64,000 nt of DNA. It comes from Rhodospirillaceae bacterium (GTDB lineage Bacteria > Pseudomonadota > Alphaproteobacteria > Rhodospirillales > CALINB01). The stretch covers positions 25,528-89,527 of the forward strand of contig JAYNQW010000004.1 of assembly GCA_038114465.1 (NCBI GenBank), in the 5' to 3' direction. Shown one piece after another: positions 24,205 to 46,569 of this stretch. The translations under genes were made by a program, and so were the position numbers. The notes under the pieces were generated by a model. That model made no database searches. It was given only the letters and a program-made list of their open reading frames with translations, and had not been told where the DNA came from. Each line of letters starts with the position of its first letter. The first letter of the stretch is position 1.

Positions 24205-25059
24205 TCACGAATAAAACGGTGCATCACCACCGATGGTGGTGCGGTGCATATGGCGGATGTAGGTGGGGTCATCAAGACGCGTGTGATCAGCAATATGGTG
24301 CGTGCACCGGTTGTCCCAAAACGTTAAATCACCAACTTGCCATTGATGGCGATAAACAAATTTTTCTTGCGCGGTATGTTCGAATAAGGCGGATAAAACA
24401 TCAGCCGACTCGTGCTCATCCATACCTTCGATGGCCAGTGTGTGCTGCGGATTAGCAAAAATACATTTTCGGCCTGTTTCCGGATGAATACGAATCAACG
24501 GATGAACGTTACCGGGCGTTCTTTCTTTTTGCTCTTCATTAAGCGGCCTTTTAAATGATCGGTCCGCATTACTGCGCCCGGCCAGGAAAAACCCGCGTTT
24601 TCCCTCGACGGCCTTTTTTAGATCCATCGGTAACGCCTCATAGGCCTTATACATATTGGCAAAACCGGTATTCCCACCCTGATCGGGAATTTCGATTCCG
24701 TAAAGCATCGAACCCAGTGCCGTTTCTTTTTTATAAGCCAGATCGGAATGCCACATCGGCCCACCATCCGGGACACCGATATAACGGCCATTTTCCTTGC
24801 GGGTCGAAACGATCAGGATATCCGGAAAGCCCGACACCACCGCATCGTCTGAAGGATGCCGATCAAGGGGCCCAAACCGTTTGGAAAACGCGACGTGCTG
24901 TTGGGGTGTGAGTTTTTGGCTGCGGAATACCAATACAAGATAATCCAAATGCGCCTGATGCACCCGCGCAAACGTCTCGTCACTCATGGGCTTAGCGACA
25001 TCAAGGCCGATAACTTCGGCGCCCAGCACGTCGGATAGGGGGCGGACTTCAAACGCCAT
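24205..25059 (-). CDS. TauD/TfdA family Fe(II)/2-oxoglutarate-dependent dioxygenase
   Basis: 284 aa with a family-typical N-terminus (PLSDVLGAEVIGLDVAKPMSDETF), the HxD facial triad (WHSDLAY) and a distal His region (WDNRCTHH). Confidence 0.85.
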   Translation of the reverse strand: MAFEVRPLSDVLGAEVIGLDVAKPMSDETFARVHQAHLDYLVLVFRSQKLTPQQHVAFSKRFGPLDRHPSDDAVVSGFPDILIVSTRKENGRYIGVPDGGPMWHSDLAYKKETALGSMLYGIEIPDQGGNTGFANMYKAYEALPMDLKKAVEGKRGFFLAGRSNADRSFKRPLNEEQKERTPGNVHPLIRIHPETGRKCIFANPQHTLAIEGMDEHESADVLSALFEHTAQEKFVYRHQWQVGDLTFWDNRCTHHIADHTRLDDPTYIRHMHRTTIGGDAPFYS

Positions 25060-25076
25060 GGCGATTAAACACGCCC

Positions 25077-25970
25077 TTACATCGTTTTAGTGGCACCGAC
25101 GGTAATCCGCCAAATCAACCGGCGCTCATCGGGCCATTTATAGTCGAATGTGGCTAAATGCTGTACGGCGCAATTGTCCCACATCAGGATGTCGCCAACC
25201 TGCCAGTGGTGACGGTAGCGAAACGGCTCTTGCGTGATGAGCTTTGCGTGTTCGTTAATAAGCGAAACGCCTTCCGCCGCATCCATGCCTTCCACGCCGA
25301 TACATTCACCGGGGCTGACATAAAGACACTTTCTCCCCGTCAAGGGGTGGACCCGCACGAACGGGTGGCGGACATTCGGCATCTTTTTACGCTTGTCATT
25401 GTCCTGGGTACCGGTGCCGGTTTTCGCCCGGCGTCCGAATACATCATGCACAACGATCAAGTCTTCCAATTGCTCTTTGGTTTTGTGAGGCAAAGAATCA
25501 TAGGCCGCCGCCGCACTGGCAAAGTTGGTATCGCCCCGGACAACACCATCGCGGACCGGCACCTCTAAAGCATATAAAACCGTTGCCCGTGGCGGACAGT
25601 CCATGAAGGACATATCCGTATGCCAAACCCGGCCCGCATCGGCATGACCGATGTCTTCGCCGTTTTCCTTGATGTTTGAAACCAGCAGGACTTCGTCATG
25701 ATCCGGGTGATGATAGTGGTCGAGAAAATTCTTTTCGACATTGCCAAAGCGTTTGGCAAAGGCAATGTATTGCTCGGCAGTGATTTCTTGACCCCGGATG
25801 CATAAAACCGAACGCTCGTTAAAAATCTCTTCAATTTTGGCGAATGTCTCGTCATCAAGTGGCTGCGATAAATCAACACCTGAAATCTCAGCGCCGATGA
25901 CCGCATCGGGATAGGAAATGTTCAGGCCGCTGATATGATTTTGAGGTTCAATCTGCGTTGTTTGAGGCAT
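25077..25970 (-). CDS. TauD/TfdA family Fe(II)/2-oxoglutarate-dependent dioxygenase (tandem paralog)
   Basis: 297 aa with WHTDMSF (HxD) and WDNCAVQH. It lies 17 nt upstream of its paralog on the same strand. Confidence 0.85.
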   Translation of the reverse strand: MPQTTQIEPQNHISGLNISYPDAVIGAEISGVDLSQPLDDETFAKIEEIFNERSVLCIRGQEITAEQYIAFAKRFGNVEKNFLDHYHHPDHDEVLLVSNIKENGEDIGHADAGRVWHTDMSFMDCPPRATVLYALEVPVRDGVVRGDTNFASAAAAYDSLPHKTKEQLEDLIVVHDVFGRRAKTGTGTQDNDKRKKMPNVRHPFVRVHPLTGRKCLYVSPGECIGVEGMDAAEGVSLINEHAKLITQEPFRYRHHWQVGDILMWDNCAVQHLATFDYKWPDERRLIWRITVGATKTM

Positions 25971-28780: not shown

Positions 28781-30154
28781 ATGGCAAAAACAACTTACCG
28801 ATTAAGTGCGCCAACGAAACGGCTATCTGAATACATGGCCGGGGCGCGGCGAATGAAGCTGCCTGCCAATGTCGTCGAAAAAACCAAACATCATATCCTC
28901 GATACGTTGGCTGCGATCATCTCAGGATCGCGCTTGGTGCCCGGCGAACGGGCGATTAGCTTTATAAAGCCCCAAGGCGGCGCCAAGGAAGCCACAGTTA
29001 TCGGCACCAAACTCAAAACCAGTGCAATCAATGCAGCCCTTGCCAACGCCATCATGGCGCATGCCGATGAAACCGACGATTCCCATTTTTTATCTAACAT
29101 GCATCCGGGCAGCGTCATCGTGCCCGCCGCCTTGGCCATGTCTGAACGGCAGGGCTCGAACGGCCAAGCATTCCTGCGCTCCGTAACCTTGGGTTACGAT
29201 ATCGGCGCGCGCGTCAACATGGTCCTCAGCCCCGAAGCCATGCGCAAGCATGCATACGACTCCCACAGTTTCGGGGGCAACTTCGGCGGTGCTGCTGCCG
29301 CGGCCATGCATCTCAAACTGAACGCCCAACAGATGCGTCACGTACTTTCTTATGCCGCTCAGCAAACATCGGGCATGCGAACCTGGGGGCGCGACCCCGA
29401 ACACGTCGAGAAAGCCTTTGTCTTTTCCGGCATGGCGGCGCGCAACGGTGTCACCGCGGCCCTTATGATCGATGACGGCTTTACCGGTGTTGAGGACGTC
29501 TTCTCCGGCAACCCGAATTATTTCGATATTTATGTCGAAGCACCGAAGCGGCGCGAGTTGACGGCCCTCCTCGGCAAGCGCTTTGAGGTTATCCGCACCA
29601 ATATCAAGCGCTGGTCGGTCGGATCGCCGGCCCAAGCAGCCCTCGATGCGACCCAAGACCTGATCGATACCTACGGCTTTAAACCGAATGATATCGAAAA
29701 AATTGAAATTACCCTCACGGATCACGGCGCCAAGACGGTCGATAACCGGGACATGCCCGATATTTGCGCACAACACCTCGTCGCCATGATGTTCGTCGAC
29801 GGCACCGCAACGTTTGAGTCAACACACGATTATAAACGCATGTCGGATCCGAAGATTTTAGCGCTTCGCAAAAAAACCACGCTTAAAGGCAGCATGAAAC
29901 TCGAACACGCCACGCCGCCGCGCCAAGGTATCGTGTCGGTAACGCCAAAGGGCGGCAAAAAAGTCACATCACATACCAAGGCCGTTCGCGGCACGGCCGA
30001 CAACCCCATGACCCGCGACGAGGTTGAAACCAAGGCGTATGACCTAATCGCACCGATCTTGGGCAAGAAACGTTCGAAGAATCTTATCACCAAGATTTGG
30101 GGGCTCGAAAAGGTGAAAAACGTCCGCAAGCTGCGCGAACTGCTGACCGCTTAA
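28781..30154 (+). CDS. MmgE/PrpD family protein (2-methylcitrate dehydratase superfamily)
   Basis: 457 aa with a family-typical N-terminal helical domain (KHHILDTLAAIISGS..., AHADETDDSH, GGNFGGAAAAA). Confidence 0.8.
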   Translation: MAKTTYRLSAPTKRLSEYMAGARRMKLPANVVEKTKHHILDTLAAIISGSRLVPGERAISFIKPQGGAKEATVIGTKLKTSAINAALANAIMAHADETDDSHFLSNMHPGSVIVPAALAMSERQGSNGQAFLRSVTLGYDIGARVNMVLSPEAMRKHAYDSHSFGGNFGGAAAAAMHLKLNAQQMRHVLSYAAQQTSGMRTWGRDPEHVEKAFVFSGMAARNGVTAALMIDDGFTGVEDVFSGNPNYFDIYVEAPKRRELTALLGKRFEVIRTNIKRWSVGSPAQAALDATQDLIDTYGFKPNDIEKIEITLTDHGAKTVDNRDMPDICAQHLVAMMFVDGTATFESTHDYKRMSDPKILALRKKTTLKGSMKLEHATPPRQGIVSVTPKGGKKVTSHTKAVRGTADNPMTRDEVETKAYDLIAPILGKKRSKNLITKIWGLEKVKNVRKLRELLTA

Positions 30155-30164
30155 GGGCACGCCG

Positions 30165-31664
30165 ATGAAAATCCACGACGTCAGCCCGCACAAGCCGGGG
30201 GAGGTTCTTGCCAAACCCGATCAACTTGCCTGGAAACTCGCCGCCGTCGCGCTGGATCCGACACCCAACGATGCCGATGCCGTCGATATGGCGATCAACC
30301 GCATCATCGATAATGCCGGTGTCGCCATTGCAGCCATCAATAATCGGGCGGTGGCGAATGCGCGTGCACAAGCCCTCGCCCACCCGCGCGAAGGGGGTGC
30401 GACCGTCTTGGGCGTGCCAAACGACACACGGGTGCATTGCGAATGGGCAGCATGGGCCAACGCCACGGCTGTGCGGGAGCTCGACTTTCATGATTACTTC
30501 GGCGGTGTCGACTCGGGCCATCCCGGCGATAATATCCCGTCCATCATTGCCGCCGCGGAGCAATGCGCATGCACCGGTGATGCCCTCGCGCGTGGCATCA
30601 TCATCGCGTATGAAACGCAAATCTCCATGGCGAAAGGGCTGAACATTAAGCGTCACGGCCTCGAGAACCTGGGCAACGTCGGCCCGGGTGTCGCCGCCGG
30701 CATCGGCGCCATGATGGGGCTGGATATCGAAACACTATACGAAGCCCTGCAACAGGCTGCCCATGTTTCACAAACTGTACGGCAAACCCGCCGGGGCGAC
30801 ATCACCAGCTGGAAAGCCTATGCGCCGGGACATGTCGGCAAACTCGCTATCGAGGCCGTCGACCGTGCACTACGCGGTGAACGCAGCCCGACGCCAATTT
30901 ACGAAGGCACCGACGGCATTCTCGCCCGCCAAGTCGGTGGTGATACGGGGCATATTCCCCTGGCAGAACCAGGCGAGCCTAAAACGCAAATCCTCGAAAC
31001 ATTCACCAAGGAACATTCGATCGGCTATCACGGCCAGGCCATCGTCGATTTGGCATTTAAGATGCGTGATCAGCTCGATAATCTGGAGAACATCGAGAGC
31101 ATCGTTCTTCTTACCAAACGTAACACCCACAACGTGATGGGATGCGGCGGCAATGATCCGCAGAAGTACGATCCCGATGCGAGCCGGGAAACCCTCGATC
31201 ATAGCGGCATGTACGCGTTTGCCGTCGCCCTTGAAGACGGTGCTTGGCATCATATCAATAGTTATTTGCCCGAGCGCACCCACCGGCCGGAGACCGTCAC
31301 GCTATGGAAGAAAATCAGCACGGTCGAGAGCGAAGAATGGAACAAGCGATACGACGACCCGCCGCCGCTGGAACGTGACCATGGGTGCCGCGCCGTCGTA
31401 ACTTATAAAGACGGTCGGCAGGTCATCGACGAACTCGGTGTTGCCAACGCTCATCCGCGCGGGGCGCGGCCCTTTGCTCGACCCGAATATATCAACAAAT
31501 ATCTGACACTCGCCGACGGCATCGTCGAGGCGGGCGAAAGCGAACGGTTTCTCGATACCGTTCAACGGCTGGCCGATTTAAAACCTGAAGAAATTTCCGG
31601 GCTGAATATTGCGCTCGATCCAGGCAAGCTTGAAATGCTAACACCGAAACGCAGTATTTTTTGA
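30165..31664 (+). CDS. MmgE/PrpD family protein (tandem paralog)
   Basis: 499 aa with RIIDNAGVAIAAIN, VRELDFHDYF and HPGDNIPSIIAAAE. It starts 10 nt after its paralog. Confidence 0.8.
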   Translation: MKIHDVSPHKPGEVLAKPDQLAWKLAAVALDPTPNDADAVDMAINRIIDNAGVAIAAINNRAVANARAQALAHPREGGATVLGVPNDTRVHCEWAAWANATAVRELDFHDYFGGVDSGHPGDNIPSIIAAAEQCACTGDALARGIIIAYETQISMAKGLNIKRHGLENLGNVGPGVAAGIGAMMGLDIETLYEALQQAAHVSQTVRQTRRGDITSWKAYAPGHVGKLAIEAVDRALRGERSPTPIYEGTDGILARQVGGDTGHIPLAEPGEPKTQILETFTKEHSIGYHGQAIVDLAFKMRDQLDNLENIESIVLLTKRNTHNVMGCGGNDPQKYDPDASRETLDHSGMYAFAVALEDGAWHHINSYLPERTHRPETVTLWKKISTVESEEWNKRYDDPPPLERDHGCRAVVTYKDGRQVIDELGVANAHPRGARPFARPEYINKYLTLADGIVEAGESERFLDTVQRLADLKPEEISGLNIALDPGKLEMLTPKRSIF

Positions 31665-31666: not shown

Positions 31667-32434
31667 TTACGGCCCTAAAAATCGGCCGCCGTTGACGTGA
31701 ATCGTTTGCCCGGTAATGTAGCGGCCCGCCGGCACACATAATGCGTGCACCATATTCGCGATGTTCTCGAACGACCCCATGTAACCTAGGGGTATGCTCT
31801 TGGTGCCGGCTTTATTCGCCGACTCGGGCGATGTTTTACTGCGCTCCCCGCCGATACCGCCCGGTGCGATGAGGTTCACCGTAATGTTATGCTCGGCCAG
31901 TTCCATCGCGAGGGCCCGGGTCATGCCACCGAGGCCGGCCTTACCCGCCGCAACATGAACCCGGTTCTTAGCACCCACATGGTGGCTGATACCGCCCATG
32001 TTGGCCACGACACCGCCGCCGTTTTTGATCATGTGCGGCACACACGCGCGCGTGCAAAGAAACGTTCCATCGAGAATAATGGAAAGCAACTGCTGCCATT
32101 CTTCAAGACTCATTTCAAGAAAAGGTGTTTGTTTTCGGATTGCAGCATTGTTCACGAGTATATCGATACGACCGAAACGCTCGATAATGGCATCAATTAG
32201 ACCTTTGACGGCGGTCTCGTCAGTTACATCGGCCAAATGAACCATTGCTTCGCCGCCAAGGTCCTTGATTTCCTTTTCGAGGGCTTCGGCTTCATCGCGC
32301 GAATTTTGCGCGTGCACGACAATGGCTGCCCCTTCACGTGCCAGTGATAAGGCGGATGCCCGCCCAATACGCCGAACACCGCCGGTAATTAAAGCAACCT
32401 GACCGGCTAACTGTTTGGCACCGGAATCGGGCAT
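31667..32434 (-). CDS. Short-chain dehydrogenase/reductase (FabG-like), last gene of the cupin operon
   Basis: The ATG at 32434 is preceded by AAGGAAAAGAGG. The cofactor motif TGGVRRIG, NNAA and a YxxxK-region equivalent are present. The longer ORF-track start would overlap the upstream cupin. Confidence 0.85.
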   Translation of the reverse strand: MPDSGAKQLAGQVALITGGVRRIGRASALSLAREGAAIVVHAQNSRDEAEALEKEIKDLGGEAMVHLADVTDETAVKGLIDAIIERFGRIDILVNNAAIRKQTPFLEMSLEEWQQLLSIILDGTFLCTRACVPHMIKNGGGVVANMGGISHHVGAKNRVHVAAGKAGLGGMTRALAMELAEHNITVNLIAPGGIGGERSKTSPESANKAGTKSIPLGYMGSFENIANMVHALCVPAGRYITGQTIHVNGGRFLGP

Positions 32435-32450: not shown

Positions 32451-32870
32451 TTATTTTTTGTTTTCCGGTTCGAAACCGGGTTCGTACCATGGCCGGTCCA
32501 CATTTTTATCTTCGGCATACCCCATGATACCGAGTTCCGGATCACTCCCGGCATCTTTCGCCATAAAATAAATATTTAAGCCTTCGCCGATCGCAACCAT
32601 TTGGTGCAAAGCATTTGCCGGGATATGAACCATATCGCCCGGGACCATCTCATGATGTTCGCCCTCGACCATCGCTTTGAATTTTCCTTGAAGCACGTAA
32701 TTAAACTGCTCGACCTTAGGATGACGATGCGGCTGCGAACCGGACCCTTGTTTTTTCTCCACAACGCCTGCGGAAATGCGTTCGCCTTCAACCATGCCGA
32801 TTTCAGCCGAACTGATGTGGGCCGCGACCATATCGCGCTTTTCATCAATAATTCTGTGAAAATATTTCAT
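32451..32870 (-). CDS. Cupin paralog 1 (139 aa, monocupin)
   Basis: Cupin motif 1 is GSGSQPHRHPKVEQFNYVLQG and motif 2 is GDMVHIPANALHQ. The N-terminus is MKYFHRIIDE and the C-terminal tail is WYEPGFEPENKK. Confidence 0.85.
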   Translation of the reverse strand: MKYFHRIIDEKRDMVAAHISSAEIGMVEGERISAGVVEKKQGSGSQPHRHPKVEQFNYVLQGKFKAMVEGEHHEMVPGDMVHIPANALHQMVAIGEGLNIYFMAKDAGSDPELGIMGYAEDKNVDRPWYEPGFEPENKK

Positions 32871-32893
32871 GCTTAACTCCTTCGTTTTAAAAA

Positions 32894-33736
32894 TTAATGT
32901 TTTTCCGGATCATGACCTTCCGCATAGCGCGGTGTGTTAAGGCTGGGGTCTTCCGGCACCCCGAAAATACTGCGTCCCTCTTGCTTACCGACATCTTTCG
33001 CGACCACAAATACCCAGTCTTCATCGCCGACAACGATGTTGCCGTGCAGGGCGTTCGGCGGGACATACCATAAATCTCCCGGGCCGATGACTTTCTCTTC
33101 GCCTTCGACGGAAACTTCGCACCGTCCGGAAATAGTATACATGAATTGTTCGACATCCGGATGGCGATGCAGTTGAGCGCCGGTGCCAGCAGCATGGCTC
33201 ATCAACCCGATGGTAATTCGGTCACCATCAATTCGTGTTCCCTTTGTCGTCGTCATTTTAGGATTCAGTAACTCGGCATCGTTCTTATTGAATTTGAAGA
33301 AGTACTTCGAATCTTCACCTTTATCGATACCTTCGAGGACTTCTGACTCCTGACGCGGCGCACTCACGTTTGGGTCCTCCGGCACACCGCTGGTGCCCCG
33401 TTCCGGATCCTTAGCCGCATCTTTTACCATGAAAAAGATGCAGTCTTCTTCGCCGACGGCGATGATGCTGTGCAATGTATTGGCCGGGATATGAACGGCT
33501 TCACCGGGACCGATCACACGCTCCTCACCGTCAACCCAGGGCTGTAATTGGCCCTTTAAGACGAAATTAAATTGCTCAACATTCGGATGGCGGTGCGGCT
33601 GCGAACCGGTGCCGCGCTCTTTATGCACATAACCGACCGTCAAGCGCTCGCCTTTGACCCGCGCACCCTTGGAGGTCGTTATTTTTTTAGAGAACTCCTG
33701 AATGCCCATCGCCGGCAGGTTATGAACAAACGCCAT
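32894..33736 (-). CDS. Cupin paralog 2 (280 aa, bicupin made of two units of the same family)
   Basis: Two complete motif sets are present (GTGSQPHRHPNVEQF...VHIPANTLH and GTGAQLHRHPDVEQF...WYVPPNALH). The second half starts KYFFKFNKND and ends RYAEGHDPEKH. Confidence 0.85.
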   Translation of the reverse strand: MAFVHNLPAMGIQEFSKKITTSKGARVKGERLTVGYVHKERGTGSQPHRHPNVEQFNFVLKGQLQPWVDGEERVIGPGEAVHIPANTLHSIIAVGEEDCIFFMVKDAAKDPERGTSGVPEDPNVSAPRQESEVLEGIDKGEDSKYFFKFNKNDAELLNPKMTTTKGTRIDGDRITIGLMSHAAGTGAQLHRHPDVEQFMYTISGRCEVSVEGEEKVIGPGDLWYVPPNALHGNIVVGDEDWVFVVAKDVGKQEGRSIFGVPEDPSLNTPRYAEGHDPEKH

Positions 33737-33767
33737 GATTTAAGTCTCCTTAAATTCTCAATCGGCC

Positions 33768-34187
33768 TTATTTCTTTTTATCAGGCTCAAACCCGGGTTC
33801 GTACCAGGGCGTTTCCTCTGTACCTTCATCATAAACGCCGTAAATCCAGTTATCCGGATCGCTATGAGCGTCTTTCGCCATAAAATAAATATTCGGGCCG
33901 TCGCCGACAGCAACCATATGATGCAGTGCATTCGGTGGGATATGAACCATGTCACCCGGTTCCATCGTATGATGCTCGCCTTCCACCATCGATTTAAACT
34001 TGCCGGCAATCACGTAATTAAACTGCTCGACTTTGGGGTGACGGTGCGGACGGGAACCCGAGCCCTTTTCCTTTTCGATCAATCCGGCAGTAATTCGGTC
34101 GCCTTTAATGACAGCAGCATGAGCCGTTGTACGTGTGCGTTTTAAATCCGCCCGCTCTTCATCGATGATACGGTGAAAATATTTCAT
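33768..34187 (-). CDS. Cupin paralog 3 (139 aa)
   Basis: It starts MKYFHRIIDE, carries GSGSRPHRHPKVEQF and GDMVHIPPNALHH, and ends WYEPGFEPDKKK. Confidence 0.85.
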   Translation of the reverse strand: MKYFHRIIDEERADLKRTRTTAHAAVIKGDRITAGLIEKEKGSGSRPHRHPKVEQFNYVIAGKFKSMVEGEHHTMEPGDMVHIPPNALHHMVAVGDGPNIYFMAKDAHSDPDNWIYGVYDEGTEETPWYEPGFEPDKKK

Positions 34188-34225
34188 AAATGTTGCCTCC
34201 CATTTTTGCAGCTTGACTTAATTCT

Positions 34226-34645
34226 CTATTTTTTTTCATCCGGATCGAAACCGGGCTCATACCAAGGCTTCGTTGCCGTTTTATCTTCCGCTTCGCCGTA
34301 AATCCATCGTTCCGGATCGCTGATGGTATCTTTGGCCATAAAATAAATATTTTCGCCTTCACCAACAGCGACCATCTGATGAAGTGCGTTCGGCGGTATA
34401 TGGACCATATCACCTTCTTCCATGATGTGGTGTTCACCTTCGACCATGGATTTAAATTTTCCTTTGATGATGAAATTAAACTGCTCAAGTTTTGGATGAC
34501 GGTGCGGCTGCGAGCCGGACCCTTGCTCCTTTTGCACGAGACCAGCAGTAATGCGTTCGCCTTTAATGACGGCGGCATGCGCCGTACTTGTTTTGCTTTT
34601 GATACTTTTTCTGTCTTCGTCGATGATCCGATGGAAATATTTCAT
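34226..34645 (-). CDS. Cupin paralog 4 (139 aa)
   Basis: It starts MKYFHRIIDE, carries GSGSQPHRHPKLEQF and GDMVHIPPNALHQ, and ends WYEPGFDPDEKK. By hand alignment, 103 of 139 residues are identical to paralog 3. Confidence 0.85.
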   Translation of the reverse strand: MKYFHRIIDEDRKSIKSKTSTAHAAVIKGERITAGLVQKEQGSGSQPHRHPKLEQFNFIIKGKFKSMVEGEHHIMEEGDMVHIPPNALHQMVAVGEGENIYFMAKDTISDPERWIYGEAEDKTATKPWYEPGFDPDEKK

Positions 34646-34662
34646 CTCAGTGCTCCCCCTTA

Positions 34663-35088
34663 TTATTTTTTTGCGTCAGGCTCAAAGCCCGGTTCGTAAT
34701 GGGGCGTATTGGCCCCTTCCCGGTCTGGAATGCCCATAATGCCGAGCTTTTTGTCCGACTGCGCGTCTTTCGCCATAAAATATATACAGTCACCATCGCC
34801 GATGGCGACCGTTTGGTGCAATGCATTGGCCGGAATGTATACTAATCCGCCGGGGCCGATTTCGATTTGCTCGTCCTCCACTAAGGCACGCAACCGGCCT
34901 TCCAAAACATAATTGAATTGCTCCACATTGGGATGGCGGTGCGGCTGCGAGCCGGTACCGAGCGCCTTGCGCACGACGGCAACCGTCACCTTTTCACCAG
35001 AAACAGTTGCCGGCTTCGCCGTGGTATGCCGGTCCGGCAAATCATCCGGTTCTTGATTCAAAAGATCATAAAAGTATTTCGATGTCAT
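34663..35088 (-). CDS. Cupin paralog 5 (141 aa)
   Basis: It carries GTGSQPHRHPNVEQF and GGLVYIPANALHQ and ends HYEPGFEPDAKK. Confidence 0.85.
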   Translation of the reverse strand: MTSKYFYDLLNQEPDDLPDRHTTAKPATVSGEKVTVAVVRKALGTGSQPHRHPNVEQFNYVLEGRLRALVEDEQIEIGPGGLVYIPANALHQTVAIGDGDCIYFMAKDAQSDKKLGIMGIPDREGANTPHYEPGFEPDAKK

Positions 35089-35137
35089 ACCAACGGGCCT
35101 CCCTTTATTTATATTTATTAGTATTGCCTAAGCCGTT

Positions 35138-36256
35138 TTATCGGAAGTGTTTCGCTACCTCCATAAACTTGGCAAAAGATTCGGGATCGATGGAATGATC
35201 CTCTTTTTTCTTAACCGAGAATTCAAACGCCGAAAGCGTTTCTTCGATTGTTTCTTGGGCGATACCATTGGTGATGAAAACAATCCGCGTCTGATCATTC
35301 CCACCCGGAAAGGAATCGAGTTCGACCGGCGGATGAAACAGATGCTGCACCGCCTGCACGACAATCGGCGTGCCTTCGACATTCACGATACCTTTCATGC
35401 GCAAAAGGTCGCTTCCTTTAAAGGCTGAAAGCATGTTGAACCATACTTCCAGTCCCTGTGCCATCACCGGCTTGTCATAGGTGATGCAATAGGAACTGAT
35501 GTTCTCGTCGTGATGAGCGTGTTTATGACCGCTGGCATGACTATGGTCATGATCGTGAATATGAGCGTGCTCATCCGTTTTTAACCATTCTTCGATTTCA
35601 TTTTCACCCCAGCGCTCATTATCCGGATTCAGGCCAAACAACGTATCGGGGTCAACTTCACCATGAAGAATCTTATCAATCACTACGCCAGGATTAATGT
35701 GTTCAATGCGCTTGCAGAGAGTCGTGTAAGTTTCGTCATTACTGAGGTCAGTTTTGGTGATGAAAATTCGGTCGGCAACGGCGACTTGCTTGACGGATTC
35801 ATAATGATCATCAAATTGCCCGAGAGCATGCACCGAATCGACAACCGTAATAACGCCATCGACAAAAAACCAATCGCCGAGCCCACTATCGGAGATCACC
35901 GTCATCAACACCGGTACCGGATCGGCCAATCCGGTCGTCTCGACGAGCACGCGATCAAACGGCGGAATTTCGCCTTTGGCCCGGCTTTCAAGCAGGCCAC
36001 TAAGCGTATCAACAAGATCGCCCCGAACCGAACAGCATAAACATCCGCTCGATAGCAGCATGACGTCTTCATTGGGGGTCGTCATCAGCTCATGGTCGAG
36101 TGCAATATCGCCGAATTCGTTAATAATCACGGCGGCATTTTCCATGCCCGGATGCTTCAAAATCCGGTTTAACAGCGTCGTCTTGCCGCTGCCCAAAAAG
36201 CCCGTAATCACGGTCAGCGGGATAAAAGCCTTTTCAGGCCGTTCAAGTTCTTGCAT
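35138..36256 (-). CDS. COG0523/CobW-family G3E GTPase metallochaperone with His-rich insert
   Basis: The Walker A motif is GFLGSGKTTLLN and the CxCC motif is SSGCLCCSVRGD. The His-rich segment DEHAHIHDHDHSHASGHKHAHHD lies at 35507-35575. A CobW C-terminal domain is present. This is the first gene of the same-strand run with the five cupins. Confidence 0.88.
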   Translation of the reverse strand: MQELERPEKAFIPLTVITGFLGSGKTTLLNRILKHPGMENAAVIINEFGDIALDHELMTTPNEDVMLLSSGCLCCSVRGDLVDTLSGLLESRAKGEIPPFDRVLVETTGLADPVPVLMTVISDSGLGDWFFVDGVITVVDSVHALGQFDDHYESVKQVAVADRIFITKTDLSNDETYTTLCKRIEHINPGVVIDKILHGEVDPDTLFGLNPDNERWGENEIEEWLKTDEHAHIHDHDHSHASGHKHAHHDENISSYCITYDKPVMAQGLEVWFNMLSAFKGSDLLRMKGIVNVEGTPIVVQAVQHLFHPPVELDSFPGGNDQTRIVFITNGIAQETIEETLSAFEFSVKKKEDHSIDPESFAKFMEVAKHFR

Positions 36257-36311
36257 TTTCTGTTATCTCTACCCTGGTGAACGAAGATTTGATCAGAATG
36301 GACCACACTCG

Positions 36312-37088
36312 ATGACTATGGTCAACCGCCAGCACATCATCATCCCATACGGCTTAACCCATTGGGATAAAAATGTTTTTTCGAGCACGATGGGCGCCGG
36401 TGGCGATCTTGTTATCAATTGCCGTACCCGTTTTGTTGTGATCGACCCGACAGAGCACTCCCCGTTGCGCCTCAATGGTGGGCAATACGAGTTTCATGAG
36501 CCGCCGAACATGCGCTTACTACCGACGGTCCTGGATCAATTGGCCTTCCTCGAAACCCATTTTTTTGCGCTGTGCGGAACCTGGTCGAAAATGCAGCGGC
36601 TCTTTATTTCGCGTTATTTCGAATTCATTGTAAATCGGGTGGAAGCAGAGCGTTCACACCTCTCAAAATCAATTGAAGCATTCGGCAATCTTTACGAATA
36701 TCAGGATTGGGCTTACTCCGCCTTGCGGCCCCTACCACAGGCCTATGTCTTTGCTCCAAGGGGCGGCAGCGGTGAGGGACTCCCCCAGGCGGATGATTTT
36801 ATCCTTACCGACATTGTTTTTTGGACAGGTAAAAAAGTTTTCGTTCTCGATTTTTCCGATCCCAATGCGACCGATCCGTTCCAAAAGCGTAAATTTGATC
36901 GGATTAAAAATGCCGGTATCAAAATTTTACCTATGACGGCGGATATACTTGAAGACAAATCTTCATCAAACTTCGCCAATAGTTTACCTGAAGTGTTCCA
37001 AAATTTCTGGCAGGGCGAACTCGCGCCATCCCGCCCGTTCGTCGACACCAAGCTCGGCGACCTATCCATCAGCGACATCGGATTTTGA
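36312..37088 (+). CDS. Hypothetical protein (258 aa)
   Basis: The ATG at 36312 (MTMVNRQ...) is used, because the upstream part of the 35976 ORF is antisense to the COG0523 gene. No family was recognised. A terminator follows. Confidence 0.5.
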   Translation: MTMVNRQHIIIPYGLTHWDKNVFSSTMGAGGDLVINCRTRFVVIDPTEHSPLRLNGGQYEFHEPPNMRLLPTVLDQLAFLETHFFALCGTWSKMQRLFISRYFEFIVNRVEAERSHLSKSIEAFGNLYEYQDWAYSALRPLPQAYVFAPRGGSGEGLPQADDFILTDIVFWTGKKVFVLDFSDPNATDPFQKRKFDRIKNAGIKILPMTADILEDKSSSNFANSLPEVFQNFWQGELAPSRPFVDTKLGDLSISDIGF

Positions 37089-37090: not shown

Positions 37091-37124
37091 AAAAAAACGG
37101 CGCTCCCGAAAGAGCGCCGCTTTG
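37091..37124. terminator. Bidirectional rho-independent terminator between convergent genes
   Basis: The stem is CGGCGCTC/GAGCGCCG (37098-37105 / 37112-37119) with a 6-nt loop. A7 lies on the left and CTTTG on the right. Confidence 0.7.
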
Positions 37125-37144: not shown

Positions 37145-38257
37145 TCAGGACCCGACCAGTTTCGTCTTCACGAATTTCAAGATCCACTTTTTAACCTCAG
37201 GCTTGATGCCGGCGCCGCGTTTCACGACTTCGGTGGCATCTTTGCCGAACGATTGCGGATTATTGCCGAACCGCTTCTTGGTCAGCTTTTTGAACTTCTT
37301 ATCCTTGTAAACTTTCTTGATCGTCGCTTGATAGGTGTCGAGGACATCTTTGGAGACACCCGGCGGCAACCATAAACCCTTGTTCGACATGGAAATGAGA
37401 TTGATCAACGCTGTATGCGCTTCCCATTGCATGCCCGAGGGTTTTCTACCGTTCAACTTTTCGTAAATTTCACCGACGTGCGGCAGTTCAGGCATAATCG
37501 GGTCGCGACCGATGGTGCCATCCGGCTTAGCAAAACCAAGCGCAGCAAAGGTAATAACGCCTTGCTTTTGCAATTTAGCGTGATTCTGTTTGCATTTGAT
37601 CACGGTTTCCTGGCTGAACTGCAATTCACCCCGGACAACCGCTTTGCGGCGCTTACCTGTCGACAGGCCGAATAACGGCTTCACGTTGGGAATACCGAGC
37701 ATGTCGAAGGCCACGAACGAACCGAGACCGGACGAAATGGCGTTTTTATCGCCCATGAGCAAACGCCCCTTATCGGCGCCCGCTTTGCGTAATGCTTTGA
37801 CGTCAGCCAGAGCATCCGAACCGTTGACGCCGAGTTCCTTACGCGCTTGCAAGCAAATACCGAACGGCGATAGAACAATCGGGTTCCATTTCAACAAGTC
37901 AAATTTGACTTTCTTGCCACCAAAAACATAGCTGGTTTGAACCGAACCGCCGGTTGTCATGATGACAGTACCGTCTCTCGGTGCATTTTTCTGAAACCAG
38001 TTCGAACCCTTGATGCCGCCACCGCCTGGTTTATTGACAGCGAGCACCGCCGGTTTGCCCGGTAGGTATTTGCCGATAAAACTGGCAAAAATTCGACCGT
38101 ACTTATCCGTACCGCCGCCTTCTTTTGTCGGAATAATAACTTGAATCTTTTTACCGGAATAATCGGCAGCGATTCCTGTTGCCGGTGCGGCAACAATACC
38201 GGCACCGAGTACGAGAGCACCGGCCATTGTATAAAGTTTTGAATAATGACTACGCAT
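37145..38257 (-). CDS. Periplasmic solute-binding protein, Bug/TctC-like (tripartite tricarboxylate transporter receptor family)
   Basis: A signal peptide is present (AGALVLGAGIVAAPATGIAA). The family-like pattern is IIPTKEGGGTDKYGRIFA...VNKPGGGGIKGSNW...PRDGTVIM. No TctA or TctB gene is adjacent. Confidence 0.55.
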   Translation of the reverse strand: MRSHYSKLYTMAGALVLGAGIVAAPATGIAADYSGKKIQVIIPTKEGGGTDKYGRIFASFIGKYLPGKPAVLAVNKPGGGGIKGSNWFQKNAPRDGTVIMTTGGSVQTSYVFGGKKVKFDLLKWNPIVLSPFGICLQARKELGVNGSDALADVKALRKAGADKGRLLMGDKNAISSGLGSFVAFDMLGIPNVKPLFGLSTGKRRKAVVRGELQFSQETVIKCKQNHAKLQKQGVITFAALGFAKPDGTIGRDPIMPELPHVGEIYEKLNGRKPSGMQWEAHTALINLISMSNKGLWLPPGVSKDVLDTYQATIKKVYKDKKFKKLTKKRFGNNPQSFGKDATEVVKRGAGIKPEVKKWILKFVKTKLVGS

Positions 38258-42455: not shown

Positions 42456-43697
42456 CTAAATGTCGACTTCGCAGATATATAAACCACCGGAGAACCGGTC
42501 CACGCCGTACAACAGACCGGTTTCATCAACGTAAACATCGTTGATCTGTACCGCACCGGCGCGCGAGCCTTCCGGTGCTTCGGGAACGTAATAGGCGATT
42601 TCTTTCGGCTCAAACGGATCGGAGGTGTCGTAGACCCGCATGCCGGCATTGAACATGCCGCAGAACAAAATCGTGTCCGAACGGAATGAATAATCGCCCG
42701 GCCGGTTTTCATGTACGTTATGGGCACCGAAGCGGCCACCCCGGCGGGCGAATTCCTCAACCGGCGGCATCGGCAGCGTGCTGATCGGCACTAAATTCGT
42801 TTCCTCGCGCGCGTCCAAAATCCAAACCCGTTTTGGCCAATCCGCGCCACCGTCCTTGGTACACTCCTCACTGCAAATCAGCAAATCACGGCTGAGAAGC
42901 GGCATGACCGTATGCATGAAACCCGGGAACGGCGGATATGGGTTCCAATGGGTAATCATCTTCGGATTCGCCATGTCGGAAATATCCAACAGGATAACGC
43001 CGCCATCGATGTAAGCGAGGTATGCGCGATCTTTTTTCGCCGGATAGACATTTGTGTTGTGCGTACGAAAACCTGCCTCGAACGGAGGAACCCGTGGTGG
43101 CGGCGGCGCATCGTCGCCTTTGCGCGTACCCGGATACCACCAGCGGCCCACTTCGACCGGCTTGGTTGGATTTCGCACATCAATCGAGCGGTAAAACTGA
43201 CAATCGTTCGGATGGGTCGGCTCAAAATCCGGCGCCCCACCCGAAAAATGGATGTACTCGCCGTCAACAAACCAGCACTGGTGAACGCCCATCGAACCGG
43301 GGCCGGAGCAATCGTAAAACGAAATCGATTTTGGATTTTCTGGATCACTGACATCGAACAATTCAATCCCGGCCGGATCGCCACCCAACCCCGGATCAGA
43401 CACTAAGCCACTCGGCCCCATCGTTTGGTAGCACACGGCCATGATATCGCCGGCAAGGTCCAAGGAATTGGAGCGCACATACATATGTGGCAGCTCGGTT
43501 TGAACCGTTATTTTCGGATTTTTCGGATCAGTAACGTCGACGCCGGTAAAATTCTTTGGTGGGCCTTCATGCGCAAGCCACATGATACGGCGGCCGTCCT
43601 TGGTGACGTGTAATGCCATCCCCTCGCCCAGACCGCCGTAGCCGTCCAGGGTATGCTGTGAAATCAGGCGAATATTATGGGCTTCAGCTTGGCTCAT
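42456..43697 (-). CDS. LVIVD-repeat-like beta-propeller protein, apparently cytoplasmic
   Basis: The ATG at 43697 has a GGAGGT Shine-Dalgarno. The sequence shows repeated beta-strand blades (e.g. DVTDPKNPK, FDVSDPENPK, DISDMANPK, YDTSDPFEPK). No signal peptide is present. Confidence 0.55.
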   Translation of the reverse strand: MSQAEAHNIRLISQHTLDGYGGLGEGMALHVTKDGRRIMWLAHEGPPKNFTGVDVTDPKNPKITVQTELPHMYVRSNSLDLAGDIMAVCYQTMGPSGLVSDPGLGGDPAGIELFDVSDPENPKSISFYDCSGPGSMGVHQCWFVDGEYIHFSGGAPDFEPTHPNDCQFYRSIDVRNPTKPVEVGRWWYPGTRKGDDAPPPPRVPPFEAGFRTHNTNVYPAKKDRAYLAYIDGGVILLDISDMANPKMITHWNPYPPFPGFMHTVMPLLSRDLLICSEECTKDGGADWPKRVWILDAREETNLVPISTLPMPPVEEFARRGGRFGAHNVHENRPGDYSFRSDTILFCGMFNAGMRVYDTSDPFEPKEIAYYVPEAPEGSRAGAVQINDVYVDETGLLYGVDRFSGGLYICEVDI

Positions 43698-43792
43698 CTT
43701 ACCTCCGAAAAATCTTAATTTTGTTAATTGTTGGTCTTGGTATGTTATGAATTGTGTATGTATATGAATACCGTATTGAAGACACAATTACC

Positions 43793-44860
43793 ATGGCTCC
43801 AGTATCGAAAAATTTAAGAACGGATCGCATTCCGGTTTCCGTCATCACCGGCTTTCTCGGCAGCGGCAAAACCACGCTTTTGAACGCATTGCTCAAACAC
43901 CCCGGGATGGCCGACACCGCCGTCATTATTAATGAATTTGGCGAAATCGGCCTCGATCATCTTCTCGTCGAGGAAGCTTTTGAAGACGTCCTCTTGCTAC
44001 AAAGCGGGTGCCTGTGTTGCACGATCCGCGGCGATATAGTCGACACCCTCGACCGTCTGTATGGGCAAATGGACCGGGGGGAAGTCCCCCCCTTCAAACG
44101 CGCGGTCATTGAGACGACCGGCCTCGCCGACCCGGCACCCGTTCTACAGACCCTCATGACAGAAGACCTCATTACGAAGCGGTTTAGACTCGATAGCGTT
44201 ATCACCACGGTCGATGCGGCCAACGGCCTCGGTCAGCTTGATGAACACCCGGAACCGGCCAAACAAGCTGCCGTGGCCGACCGGATTGTTCTGACCAAAA
44301 CGGATCTTGTTTCAGATACGGAAGTTCAACAATTGAAAGAGCGCCTGGCGTCTTTAAATCCCGGTGCGCCGATTTTTGAAGTCATCAACGGGAATATCGA
44401 ACCCGACAAACTGTTCGGTGCCGCCCTATTCGATCTGACGCAAAAAACACCGGACGTGCAACAATGGTTGCGTGAAGAATCCTACAAATCCGAACACGAT
44501 CATCACGACAGTCACCATCACGATGTCAATCGTCACGGCGAAGACATCCGAGCATTTTGTTTAACTTATGACACACCGATCCCGTGGGATGCCTTTAAGG
44601 CATGGCTCGAATCCATCGCATCCGTGCGGGGTGCTGACCTGTTACGCATGAAAGGAATTGTTAACATCGAAGGCGAAACGACACCGATTGTTATCCATGC
44701 CGTGCAGCATGTGTTTCATCCTCCGGCACGCTTACCGAAGTGGCCCGATGATGATCATTCAACGCGTATTGTTTTTATTACCCGCAATATCGCGCAAGAA
44801 CCTCTGGCGAAAACACTGGAAGCATTCGCAACGCAAGTCAAACCGGCGTTTGCGGAATAA
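43793..44860 (+). CDS. COG0523/CobW-family G3E GTPase metallochaperone (second copy)
   Basis: It carries GFLGSGKTTLLN and QSGCLCCTIRGD. The His-rich segment EHDHHDSHHHDVNRH lies at 44492-44536. The ATG at 43793 is preferred. Confidence 0.88.
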   Translation: MAPVSKNLRTDRIPVSVITGFLGSGKTTLLNALLKHPGMADTAVIINEFGEIGLDHLLVEEAFEDVLLLQSGCLCCTIRGDIVDTLDRLYGQMDRGEVPPFKRAVIETTGLADPAPVLQTLMTEDLITKRFRLDSVITTVDAANGLGQLDEHPEPAKQAAVADRIVLTKTDLVSDTEVQQLKERLASLNPGAPIFEVINGNIEPDKLFGAALFDLTQKTPDVQQWLREESYKSEHDHHDSHHHDVNRHGEDIRAFCLTYDTPIPWDAFKAWLESIASVRGADLLRMKGIVNIEGETTPIVIHAVQHVFHPPARLPKWPDDDHSTRIVFITRNIAQEPLAKTLEAFATQVKPAFAE

Positions 44861-44861: not shown

Positions 44862-46538
44862 TTAAACCACTGCTAAAGGCGCTAAAGCATCAATATCGGT
44901 GACCACATCGATAATCACCGGACGGTTCGCGTTAAACGCCTTGTCCAACGCACCGGGTAATTCGCCCGGTTTTTCGACCCGGATGCCGACGGCGCCCATG
45001 TCTTCGGCAATCTTGGCAAAATTGACGTCCGTGAAGTGCCATAAACGCAAGCCTTCGTCGGTTTGTTCGCCACCGTAGACGCGATCAAACCCGCGTTTAG
45101 ATTGATTGCCGGAACTGTTGTTGTTCACCAGCGTCACAGAATTCACCCCCCAACGGGCCGCCGATTCGATTTCGGCGATGTGATACCAAAAACCGGCATC
45201 GCCGGTGAAGGCGAACACGGGCCGGTCCGGCGCGCCGCATTTTGCACCAATACCGGCCGAAAACGCCCAGCCGAGATGCCCGGCGCTTCGCATATAGCTC
45301 TGGCTTGGCGTACGCAGGTCATACATGCCGCCCATCCACATGCCGCCATGTCCGGTATCGGCAACAACAATGGCATCATCCGGCAAGTGCTTGCTCAGTT
45401 CATGGCAAATCCGCTCCGGCCGCATGGGGGTCGCATCGGATTCTAATAAGTCCTTATATTTGTCATACCATTCGCCGACGACGTCTTTGGCACGTTTTGC
45501 CCAATTTTCCCGGCCGCTTGCAGACTCAGCGTTTGTTTGCTCGAGCATCCGCGCAATAACCGTTTTGGCGTCCCCCTGCACGGCCGCCTGGAACGGATAA
45601 TTACGGCCAAGCTCTTCCGGCTCAATGTCGATTTGAATGACCGGCCGACCGATCTCCGGCACCTGCCAAAAATTAGTCACCATACCGCCGGTCGATGAGC
45701 CGATGTAGCAAACGAGATCGGCTTCGTTCACGATCCGGTTGGCACTTTCGCGTGAATACGTTCCGACCACGCCAACGGATAGAGGATGCGTTGCCGGAAT
45801 TGAATCTTTGCCATTTAGCGATGTTGCGATGGGAATGTTCAGCCGTTCGGCTAACGATACCAGTTCAGCCTGCGCCCCTGATGCCCGCACACCACCACCG
45901 GCAACAATGACCGGTTTTTTTGATGCTTCGAGTAAAGACAGCGCCGCCCGGACCTGGTCCGGTGCTGGTTCGGGACGAAATGGAGTCACACGCTTAAACA
46001 TATCCTCGCACAACACTTCCATATCGGCTTCTTCGGCATCGACTTGGCCTTCATTCCCGCGAAATTGCAAATGAACCGGTCCGGGACAACCCGTAACAGC
46101 CGTGCGAAACGCTTGGCGTACCATATCGGGAAACCGTTCGACGGCATCGACGGTCGCATTGAATTTCGTTACAGGCTCAAACGCCGGCACGTCATCGACT
46201 TCCTGGTAAACACCACGGAACTTTGTCGACGGATCACGCCCACCAGTCATGGCAATGACAGGCGAGCGGGCCAACCACGCATCGCGCAAACCGGCGGCCA
46301 AATTTAAGGCACCGATGACCTGCGCCATGCAGATGCCGGGCTTTCCCGTAGCGCGAGCGTAGCCATCGGCCATGTACGCTGCCGATTTTTCCGAATGCAC
46401 ATGCAGACGTTTAATATCCGTGCGCTTTTCAAGCTCAACCATGGTCGTGCGCAGCACCGCCGGCACCATGAAGATGTGGCTAACATCATAGCCTTTAAGC
46501 ATATCGGCCATAACTTGCGCACCGGTCATTTTCGCCAT
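44862..46538 (-). CDS. Thiamine-pyrophosphate-dependent enzyme (acetolactate synthase large-subunit-like)
   Basis: 558 aa with an N-terminal Pyr domain (GYARATGKPGICM...GALNL) and the C-terminal TPP motif GDAGFWYHIAEIESAARWGVNSVTLVNNN. Confidence 0.8.
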   Translation of the reverse strand: MAKMTGAQVMADMLKGYDVSHIFMVPAVLRTTMVELEKRTDIKRLHVHSEKSAAYMADGYARATGKPGICMAQVIGALNLAAGLRDAWLARSPVIAMTGGRDPSTKFRGVYQEVDDVPAFEPVTKFNATVDAVERFPDMVRQAFRTAVTGCPGPVHLQFRGNEGQVDAEEADMEVLCEDMFKRVTPFRPEPAPDQVRAALSLLEASKKPVIVAGGGVRASGAQAELVSLAERLNIPIATSLNGKDSIPATHPLSVGVVGTYSRESANRIVNEADLVCYIGSSTGGMVTNFWQVPEIGRPVIQIDIEPEELGRNYPFQAAVQGDAKTVIARMLEQTNAESASGRENWAKRAKDVVGEWYDKYKDLLESDATPMRPERICHELSKHLPDDAIVVADTGHGGMWMGGMYDLRTPSQSYMRSAGHLGWAFSAGIGAKCGAPDRPVFAFTGDAGFWYHIAEIESAARWGVNSVTLVNNNSSGNQSKRGFDRVYGGEQTDEGLRLWHFTDVNFAKIAEDMGAVGIRVEKPGELPGALDKAFNANRPVIIDVVTDIDALAPLAVV

Positions 46539-46569
46539 GGGAAGACTCCGTCTTTGTTTAAGTTGCTAT

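Follow-up and report, generated by a model that had tools for sequence, protein, structure and literature searches.

A COG0523 GTPase gene heading a clade-specific array of paralogous cupin genes in a marine Rhodospirillaceae bacterium

We analyzed a 64,000-nucleotide stretch of DNA (hereafter, the window) from Rhodospirillaceae bacterium, a marine alphaproteobacterium (GenBank assembly GCA_038114465.1, contig JAYNQW010000004.1, positions 25,528 to 89,527). The window carries an operon in which the gene for a COG0523 GTPase, here called G1, is followed by five paralogous cupin genes and a short-chain dehydrogenase/reductase (SDR) gene. What is new here is the clade-specific expansion of a widespread and undescribed pairing of COG0523 with cupins. 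We give roughly even chances to the reading that we favor, in which G1 is a metallochaperone for the cupins of the array and the operon was derived, within this clade, from a widespread gene module; that reading rests on genomic association.

Seven consecutive open reading frames (ORFs) occupy the minus strand from 36256 to 31667:

35138-36256, minus strand: G1, COG0523 G3E GTPase, 372 aa, with cobW and CobW_C domains; first gene of the operon
34663-35088, minus strand: cupin 5, 141 aa; Cupin_2 at 53.9 bits
34226-34645, minus strand: cupin 4, 139 aa; Cupin_2 at 52.6 bits
33768-34187, minus strand: cupin 3, 139 aa; Cupin_2 at 57 bits
32894-33736, minus strand: bicupin 2, 280 aa; Cupin_2 at 109.6 bits over two stretches
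32451-32870, minus strand: cupin 1, 139 aa; Cupin_2 at 52.3 bits; last cupin
31667-32434, minus strand: SDR oxidoreductase, 255 aa; adh_short_C2 at 190 bits; last gene of the operon

A preliminary description of this DNA had given the same seven same-strand genes in this order with gaps of 16-49 nt, and both the ORF listing and an independent extraction bear this out. In operon order the gaps are 49, 17, 38, 31, 23, and 16 nt, and a GGAG-type Shine-Dalgarno sequence is present in all six. The SDR lies outside the interval covered by that description (32451-36256). Its longest ORF reaches 32554; we chose the start MPDSGAKQ, which is the gene-caller start in eight sister contigs, and the 255-aa gene call is identical in sister contigs. 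A consensus terminator scan gave no hits in the intergenic gaps of the operon, as the description had also found; the lone terminator-like hairpin of the operon (34812-34786) is within the coding sequence of cupin 5. Terminator-like hits totaled 16, compared to 9.9 ± 3.3 in shuffled sequence (i.e. within about two standard deviations). The genes have the layout expected of an operon (one strand, short gaps, and no intergenic terminator), and we infer that all seven are carried on a single transcript. The only co-oriented partners of G1 within it are the cupins and the SDR, and an amidohydrolase is absent. At the far end, the SDR stop codon is 2 nt from the stop of a convergent PrpD-like gene.

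Pfam searches identified both cobW (PF02492, 152.4 bits, cut-off 20.7) and CobW_C (PF07683, 61.9 bits, cut-off 22) in G1. The protein has a Walker A motif (GFLGSGKT at residue 19), a CLCC motif at residue 72 (SSGCLCCS, 69-76), RMKG at 286-289, and a His/Asp-rich linker insert of 23 residues, DEHAHIHDHDHSHASGHKHAHHD; the Walker A motif, the CxCC, and the insert had all been recognized earlier and were found as described. Walker A (GxxGxGK[ST]) and CxCC, a metal-binding motif located between the GTPase motifs G2 and G3, are among the defining motifs of COG0523 (PMC11672702), and RxKG is an ‘arginine finger’ that is invariant in the COG0523 C-terminal domain (PMC13001444). Judged by its domains and motifs, G1 is a bona fide COG0523 protein with all the sequence hallmarks of an active member. 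Its best PDB match is YjiA (1nij, E = 3e-44), which spans both domains. G1 was rejected as an equivalog of YjiA, CobW, or ZigA because its scores are below the NCBIfam cut-offs for each (198.8/361 for YjiA, PRK11537, the best model; 147.5/332 for CobW; 106.8/600 for ZigA). Orthologs of G1 (82-100 per cent identity) are restricted to the same clade, and the next matches, at about 50-53 per cent, number in the thousands.

Every array cupin matches Cupin_2 (PF07883) at 52.3-109.6 bits (cut-off 27.2), with the bicupin matching twice. Motif 1, G(x)5HxH(x)3-4E(x)6G, and the motif 2 His are both found in the array units. The metal ligands H48, H50, E54, and H89 are invariant in 24/24 cupin units from four genomes, so that the full ligand set reported earlier for every unit is indeed present. 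Six non-ligand residues (R49, P51, Q55, N86, K105, P127) are likewise invariant across the 24 aligned units, and the residues H, H, E, Q, H, and K are also invariant throughout the broader cupin family. Invariance beyond the ligands is more in keeping with a pocket for catalysis or substrate binding than with a storage role. Paralogs 3 and 4 are identical at 103/139 residues, reproducing exactly an earlier count by hand, and the remaining pairs are 33-68 per cent identical. Bicupin 2 is a fusion of two deep paralogs, with halves that are 40-42 per cent identical and metal ligands kept in both.

An AlphaFold2 (AF2) model of cupin 3 (pLDDT 87.6) has a generic monocupin fold, nearest to KdgF and TM1459. 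PDB sequence, PDB profile, and Foldseek searches returned generic cupins only (KdgF, TM1459, quercetinase, and oxalate decarboxylase, at 16-22 per cent identity). Likewise, NCBIfam gave only sub-threshold generic matches for the array cupins (ureidoglycine aminohydrolase, mandelonitrile lyase, and gentisate dioxygenase), and weak AraC_binding matches in Pfam score under Cupin_2.

Homologs of the array cupins are confined to a few metagenome-assembled genomes labeled ‘Rhodospirillales/Rhodospirillaceae bacterium’, comprising seventeen clusters among 5.8 billion proteins and nine loci among 185,579 species genomes. The window layout is repeated in eight contigs of the same species. In related species the frame consists of a TctC-like gene, a divergent 258-aa gene, the COG0523 gene, the cupins, the SDR, and a convergent PrpD-like pair. 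The operon occurs with the same orthogroup order and flanks in three sister-species loci (L009, L012, and L013), and in degraded or partly resolved form in three more (L014, L016, and L018). Across these relatives the number of cupin genes ranges from five to seven, with five in L012 and seven (eight domains) in L009. A distance tree groups the cupins into seven orthogroups in conserved order: the window has A, C, D, E, and F, L012 has A, B, D, E, and F, and L009 has seven. The array has evolved by birth and death, starting from an ancestral set of seven or more genes.

Cupin 5 is 91 per cent identical to the first cupin of L009 (dN/dS 0.02), and its orthogroup is always first after the GTPase. 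Cupin 4 is 86 per cent identical to the third copy in L009 and 83 per cent to a stand-alone gene in L015, cupin 3 is 89 per cent identical to its orthologs in L009 and L012, and bicupin 2 orthologs are 79 per cent identical. Cupin 1 is 81 per cent identical to the fifth copy in L012, and its orthogroup includes a stand-alone gene in L017. Synonymous sites are saturated among orthologs (pS 0.65-0.85) and among paralogs and orthologs taken together (pS 0.65-0.90). With dN/dS of 0.02-0.11 for G1, all cupins, and the SDR (0.03-0.04 for G1), the operon genes are under purifying selection. The copies are thus old and diverged, as first proposed; given the saturated dS and orthologs that are closer than paralogs, we rejected both an assembly artefact and a recent dosage amplification.

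Two related loci show disruptions of the array. In L013, an insertion related to insertion sequences (IS), encoding DUF4096 (10946-11296), lies between cupin 3 and the bicupin and is missing from the near-identical contig of the same species, L012, indicating that the array tolerates disruption in natural populations. In L014 (7023-8211) degradation has left the first array positions as three fragments (102, 102, and 96 aa). The cupin hidden Markov model (HMM) still matches two of them but did not recover the other, and all four cupin genes further downstream are intact.

We searched more widely for relatives of the array cupins with a profile search over 1.84 billion representatives, which gave 11 matches below 1e-30 and 233 below 1e-10. 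The better family members have in common the motif G(T/S)GSxxHxHPxEQFNY, a KD motif whose Lys is invariant, and GPxYEPGF as a C-terminal tail. By these shared motifs the array cupins are part of a larger family, uncharacterized and unnamed, with the GPxYEPGF tail as its mark. A metagenome scan with the family alignment produced more than 599 pattern hits, of which 80 loci were kept and annotated by HMM and phmmer queries. The genes found near the family cupins were counted over all loci and over those with longer flanks:

COG0523 within 5 kb of the cupin: 16/80 of all loci, 13/41 with at least 6 kb of flank, 6/15 with at least 15 kb of flank
Amidohydrolase within 0.5 kb of the cupin: 20/80 of all loci, 12/41 with at least 6 kb of flank, 6/15 with at least 15 kb of flank
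TctC within 3 kb of the cupin: 31/80 of all loci, 20/41 with at least 6 kb of flank, 7/15 with at least 15 kb of flank

The usual module, found in soil, freshwater, and marine metagenomes, consists of COG0523, a Cc2672-like amidohydrolase, the cupin, and a TctC/tripartite tricarboxylate transporter (TTT) system, often with an SDR nearby. The amidohydrolase is mostly directly upstream of the cupin, often with a gap of 1 nt. COG0523 genes occur in the family loci at a density of one per 39 kb. This is far above the genome-wide frequency of a few copies per several Mb. The linked COG0523s are spread over about eleven separate branches of the tree, and the COG0523–cupin linkage is therefore recurrent in about eleven independent lineages. 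Six COG0523–cupin loci have no amidohydrolase (L026, L028, L031a, L032, L080, and L088). In L026, which comes from a 1.5-Mb contig, TctCBA accompanies a family cupin (array HMM score 119 bits) that is divergent from a COG0523 with 52 per cent identity to G1; in the closely related L031 and L032, the gene immediately upstream of COG0523, on its strand, encodes a bicupin. Other relatives of G1 (about 50 per cent identity) are found in the contexts Amidohydro_1–PrpD–COG0523–IclR and Amidohydro_1–COG0523–IclR with TctABC.

The cupin is normally single in the broader family, and the maximum in the 80 metagenome loci is three cupin ORFs, so an array of five to seven genes is specific to the clade. 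The preliminary description had raised the prospect that homologs elsewhere might be single-copy members of a known pathway with no COG0523 linkage; they are mostly single-copy, but they do not belong to a known pathway, and COG0523 linkage is seen for about a third of them.

A copy of the widespread module is present in the window as well, 8-13 kb from the array and beside a second COG0523 gene, G2 (about 3 kb away):

43754-44860, plus strand: G2, second COG0523 (Pfam), 368 aa; 51 per cent identical to G1 (BLASTP)
44862-46538, minus strand: acetolactate-synthase-like thiamine pyrophosphate (TPP) enzyme, in the amidohydrolase block
46570-47574, minus strand: putative cyclase, in the amidohydrolase block
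47590-48000, minus strand: single family cupin, 136 aa, next gene downstream of the amidohydrolase; array HMM score 125 bits
48109-49524, minus strand: Cc2672/Xaa-Pro-dipeptidase-like metal-dependent amidohydrolase; Amidohydro_1 at 130 bits, PDB 3mtw at E = 3e-66

The block at 44862-49524 on the minus strand (amidohydrolase, cupin, cyclase, and TPP enzyme) is co-oriented and convergent to G2. Its amidohydrolase is homologous to binuclear-Zn enzymes (3mtw, 3be7) and scores 329 bits to NF051886, under the cut-off of 500; its cupin has the motif HKHSIEQFNY and the tail PHYEPGFDPDEKK. G2 carries CLCC, RMKG (298-301), and a His-rich linker, as G1 does, and a G2-like copy is also found in L001, L016, and L018.

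On the reading that we favor, the chaperone gene would have duplicated in this Rhodospirillales lineage to give G1 and G2, while the cupin partner would have been amplified long ago into at least seven orthogroups that were later gained and lost. G1 would bind a divalent metal at its CxCC, perhaps together with the His-rich linker, and GTP hydrolysis driven by RxKG would load or re-load the cupin metal sites in a metal-poor environment. The cupins would be small cytoplasmic proteins with a 3-His/1-Glu metal site (six domains in five genes). They would act as separate enzymes, probably homodimeric, with a shared chemistry, diversified substrate pockets, and imported carboxylates as substrates, and the SDR would supply an adjacent redox step. 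The transfer of metal to the cupins, the identity of that metal, their enzymatic activity, and their substrate are all elements that we infer from sequence and genomic context.

G1 is favored as a cupin chaperone because its co-oriented partners are cupins and an SDR only, because six other COG0523–cupin loci have no amidohydrolase, and because it has been retained with the array under strong constraint. The cupins themselves are probably independent metalloenzymes in carboxylate catabolism. The neighbors of the COG0523 genes in the window are cupins, SDRs, PrpD-like, OCD, and TauD genes, a TPP enzyme, a cyclase, an amidohydrolase, and CoA-pathway genes; this catabolic setting, along with the conservation of residues beyond the ligands, argues for enzymes rather than stores. 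Similarly, varying membership and the existence of stand-alone relatives argue for independent enzymes rather than a fixed hetero-complex.

Several observations weigh against a chaperone role for G1 toward the cupins. Small cupins generally acquire metal without help, and the generic fold and sequence matches of the array cupins indicate no chemistry. About 60 per cent of the well-flanked family loci have no COG0523 nearby, and L071, with three cupin genes, has none within 11.5 kb. The same is true of the stand-alone genes in L015 (2169-2594) and L017 (5107-5526), with no COG0523 in the 2-5 kb upstream and 10 kb downstream. Both nest in the array tree, the L015 gene being 83 per cent identical to cupin 4 and the L017 gene 90 per cent identical to an L009 copy, and they look like escaped copies. 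Finally, a binuclear-metal amidohydrolase adjoins the GTPase in 12/18 linked COG0523 genes outside the clade (seventeen in the 80 loci plus that of L026), and cupin-adjacent and amidohydrolase-adjacent COG0523 copies are intermixed in the tree. We accordingly rejected the idea that client specialization is visible in the COG0523 tree, which does not decide between cupin and amidohydrolase as the client. The linkage in about eleven lineages strengthens the original suggestion of a chaperone with dedicated clients, but the Zn-type amidohydrolase of the usual module presents itself as an alternative client.

Some context for these loci can be added. The L015 gene is found with Ldh_2, a MalK-type ABC ATPase, and UxaC, and its contig is labeled Desulfobacteraceae, which suggests transfer or mis-binning; the L017 gene is found with a rhodanese, a cupredoxin, and a helicase. 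L071, a high-GC metagenome contig, is the closest parallel to the array: at 3762-7179 it has a bicupin, TctC, and two cupins, with 2-oxoacid dehydrogenase E1α and E1β after them. The contig further carries a PrpD-like gene and an SDR scoring 234 bits against that of the window, and the second domain of its bicupin is without His ligands.

The main rival to a cupin chaperone is that this COG0523 subfamily metalates the Cc2672-like amidohydrolase or other Zn enzymes, with the cupins as mere pathway neighbors and G1 as a duplicate fronting a cupin block. This is possible, though doubtful. The amidohydrolase adjoins COG0523 in the 12/18 linked cases above, appears translationally coupled to the cupin in 20/80 loci (often with the 1-nt gap), and is homologous to the Zn enzymes 3mtw and 3be7. 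In L024 and L025, homologs with about 50 per cent identity to G1 are accompanied by Amidohydro_1 but by no cupin, and COG0523 proteins are mostly Zn-linked (PMC11672702). But the nearest amidohydrolase to the G1 operon is 12 kb off, beside G2, and six independent COG0523–cupin loci are without an amidohydrolase. Moreover, G1 has been kept with the array at a dN/dS of 0.03-0.04 across species at saturated dS. A further reading is that the GPxYEPGF-tail cupins are dedicated partners of a widespread non-Zur COG0523 subfamily, either as direct metalation clients or as relay adaptors, similar to UreE/HypA, that hand the metal to the adjacent amidohydrolase. We think this unlikely; if true, it would constitute a new multi-component COG0523 maturation pathway, of which the Rhodospirillales array would be the most elaborate form, with one chaperone for five to seven diversified cupins.

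The remaining alternatives concern what the cupins do. The paralogs could be assembled into one hetero-oligomeric machine, with G1 as a maturation factor as in urease and hydrogenase. Small cupins are typically dimers, and the conserved orthogroup order, short intercistronic gaps, and co-oriented genes would be in keeping with this, as would the bicupin, whose fusion of two deep paralogs is a Rosetta-stone hint of pairing and keeps a pairwise association of paralogs plausible. Such an assembly had been put forward at the outset, but it is weakened by the differing membership (A, C, D, E, F in the window; A, B, D, E, F in L012; seven in L009) and by the stand-alone relatives of two array members (83-90 per cent identical, in L015 and L017). 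With the IS insertion tolerated inside the L013 array, the degraded first positions in L014, and a broader-family cupin that is normally single, we judge it improbable. Another early suggestion was metal buffering. In a relay or reservoir, non-enzymatic cupins would be loaded and unloaded by G1, either as a buffer or store in metal-poor seawater or as UreE/HypA-like adaptors passing metal to the amidohydrolase. The array has many copies with one intact metal site apiece, family cupins are found beside COG0523 and/or a metal-dependent hydrolase, and no characterized enzyme homolog was found in the NCBIfam and PDB searches. Non-enzymatic cupins that bind or store metal are also known (MncA, CucA, and seed storage proteins). 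We found no positive evidence for buffering, however: with a single site per 139 aa the cupins would store metal poorly, the invariant R49, Q55, N86, and K105 of the array and the Q and K of the broader family fit a substrate pocket better, the clusters are catabolic (SDR, PrpD-like, TTT transporter, and CoA-pathway genes) rather than made up of metal-uptake genes, and no Zur box was detected with the two consensus patterns used. A relay or reservoir is thus quite improbable. Most improbable is a sensory role, in which the cupin domain would bind a small molecule or metal and signal in the manner of AraC-type proteins. The weak AraC_binding matches point that way, along with Lys-rich, histone-H1-like tails on family members (the 49727-50602 protein of the window, P0029, and P0031) that could bind DNA, but AraC_binding scores are under those of Cupin_2, the array copies have no DNA-binding or signaling domain, and five to seven sensors in one SDR operon would be hard to explain.

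A 2024 review lists bacterial COG0523 clients for CobW and Nha3 only (PMC11672702), which agrees with the statement in the preliminary description that such clients are mostly unknown, and mechanistic progress on COG0523 awaits client identification (PMC11672702, PMC13001444). The words cupin and amidohydrolase are absent from the main text of the founding COG0523 survey (PMC2770081). In the full-text literature searched, which did not cover the Edmonds 2021 COG0523 sequence similarity network (SSN) survey, we found no COG0523, G3E, or cobW operon described with a cupin or an amidohydrolase–cupin pair, and within that coverage the earlier statement that no characterized system has this architecture holds. 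The nearest analog is Nha3 (P44K/P47K) with Fe-type nitrile hydratase, where a COG0523 gene is also clustered with the enzyme that it matures in a non-Zur, catabolic context (PMC2770081, PMC11672702). The array would resemble Nha3 in its logic of a chaperone encoded with its enzyme, but the partner class differs and is amplified: 3-His/1-Glu cupins in five to seven genes, rather than the nitrile hydratase α/β pair. No nitrile hydratase domain was found in window ORFs of at least 180 aa, which are the great majority of plausible genes, and G1 is without the PETEEY motif given for SSN cluster 1 in a 2026 preprint (PMC13001444).

Zur-regulated clusters (ZigA, ZagA/YciC, and the Pseudomonas aeruginosa PA5535 region) are similar in that COG0523 proteins there have CxCC and a linker rich in His, and in that a single region can hold several COG0523 paralogs. 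They differ in that the neighbors here are not Zn-independent paralogs of housekeeping enzymes (FolE2, DksA2, PyrC2, or ribosomal proteins), no Zur-box-like palindrome was found with the two patterns used, and the ZigA score is 107/600. Escherichia coli YjiA (1nij/4ixm) is the best structural and sequence relative of G1, though without its 23-residue His/Asp insert; to our knowledge, the client of YjiA itself is not known. In the UreG/UreE–urease and HypB/HypA–hydrogenase systems, a G3E GTPase gene also adjoins the metalloprotein served, and the small metal-binding partner offers a possible analogy for the cupins. These belong to other G3E subfamilies, though, with no UreD/F/E or HypA homologs here, and the analogy is offered as an idea. 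The monocupins KdgF and TM1459 share the fold and size class of the array cupins (5fpx, Foldseek E ~1e-8, TMt 0.85; 5fq0, phmmer E = 8e-8), and the SDR KduD/DehR adjoins KdgF as an SDR adjoins the array. The array family is only 20-22 per cent identical to KdgF, has its own invariant Q and K and its GPxYEPGF tail, and is not surrounded in the window by genes for uronates or polysaccharide lyases (lyase, KduI, and KdgK are all missing), with UxaC nearby in L015 only. On the basis of this identity and the lack of a uronate-utilization context in the window, the array cupins were rejected as KdgF.

Bacterial COG0523 metallochaperones are abundant and important under metal limitation, as in infection and the open ocean. 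The small, easily expressed cupins of this family are a concrete client candidate with genomic support in many lineages, and an operon in which G1 is without its usual amidohydrolase neighbor makes pairwise interaction and metal-transfer tests straightforward. The catabolic module of COG0523, amidohydrolase, cupin, and TTT transporter is worth characterizing, as are two conserved orphan proteins near G1 and G2. The array is also a clean case of long-term birth-and-death evolution of metalloprotein genes.

The region upstream of the operon contains the following features:

36257-36311, no strand: intergenic spacer of 55 nt separating G1 from the divergent 258-aa gene; presumed promoter and 5′ untranslated region
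36312-37088, plus strand: conserved orphan protein, 258 aa, divergent from the operon
37094-37123, minus strand: strong intrinsic-terminator-like hairpin (13 pairs and a T-run), after the TctC-like gene and separating that gene from the operon
37145-38257, minus strand: TctC-like periplasmic solute-binding protein, 370 aa; position conserved in the clade

Sequence blocks of the spacer are conserved between the window and five loci of the clade (L009, L012, L014, L016, and L018). The spacer gave no sigma-70 hit upstream of G1, and no Rfam family or riboswitch was found in it. Near G1 and G2 there was no match to two Zur-box consensus patterns, which may differ from this clade's motif, so that the negative is weak; the sole hit in the window (at about 14400) is at chance level. 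The neighbors of G1 and G2 include no Zn-independent paralogs of Zn enzymes (FolE2, DksA2, PyrC2, or C- ribosomal proteins), and taken together these results tentatively suggest that nothing ties the operon to a classical Zur zinc-sparing regulon. The TctC-like assignment comes from phmmer (‘TctClike’) and sequence inspection, with no Pfam hit at E < 0.001.

The 258-aa orphan is present in all clade loci examined. It has no Pfam, NCBIfam, or PADLOC hit, and a defense-system reading was rejected for lack of PADLOC hits. Its AF2 model (pLDDT 87) has no significant PDB fold match, the best being weak and nuclease-like (TM < 0.25). Two homologs (P0301 and P0307, 33-39 per cent identity) are again divergent from dehydrogenase and cupin operons, and a further homolog in L074 adjoins a family cupin. 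The P0301 contig also has a COG0523 gene, and a 413-aa gene without a Pfam hit adjoins its 258-aa homolog. In the window, the gene divergent to G2 (42456-43787, minus strand) encodes a cytoplasmic orphan, about 413 aa long, with a weak LVIVD, β-propeller-like signal. This orphan was considered as an AztD-type Zn chaperone and rejected, having just two weak matches, to haloalkylphosphorus hydrolase, and not being AztD-like by sequence.

Two further cupin genes of the window lie outside the array and the module copy:

49727-50602, plus strand: tailed family cupin, 291 aa; residues 176-290 match the array HMM at 83 bits
61592-62455, minus strand: distant bicupin, 287 aa; two Cupin_2 matches, array HMM scores of 55 and 25 bits; located 25 kb away from the array

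The tailed protein begins with about 135 aa of Lys/Ala/Thr/Arg-rich, histone-H1-like repeats, followed by the cupin (GTGSKLHTHPNEQYNFVLKG ... ARYLPGFEP). Two unrelated representatives, P0029 and P0031, have this architecture too, and the tailed cupin may be DNA-binding or nucleoid-associated. Elsewhere in the window, two tandem MmgE/PrpD-family genes (28781-31664, plus strand) stand tail to tail with the SDR, and two tandem TauD-family dioxygenase genes are found at 24205-25970 on the minus strand. Both pairs are syntenic in all clade loci, which makes this a region rich in old tandem paralog pairs.

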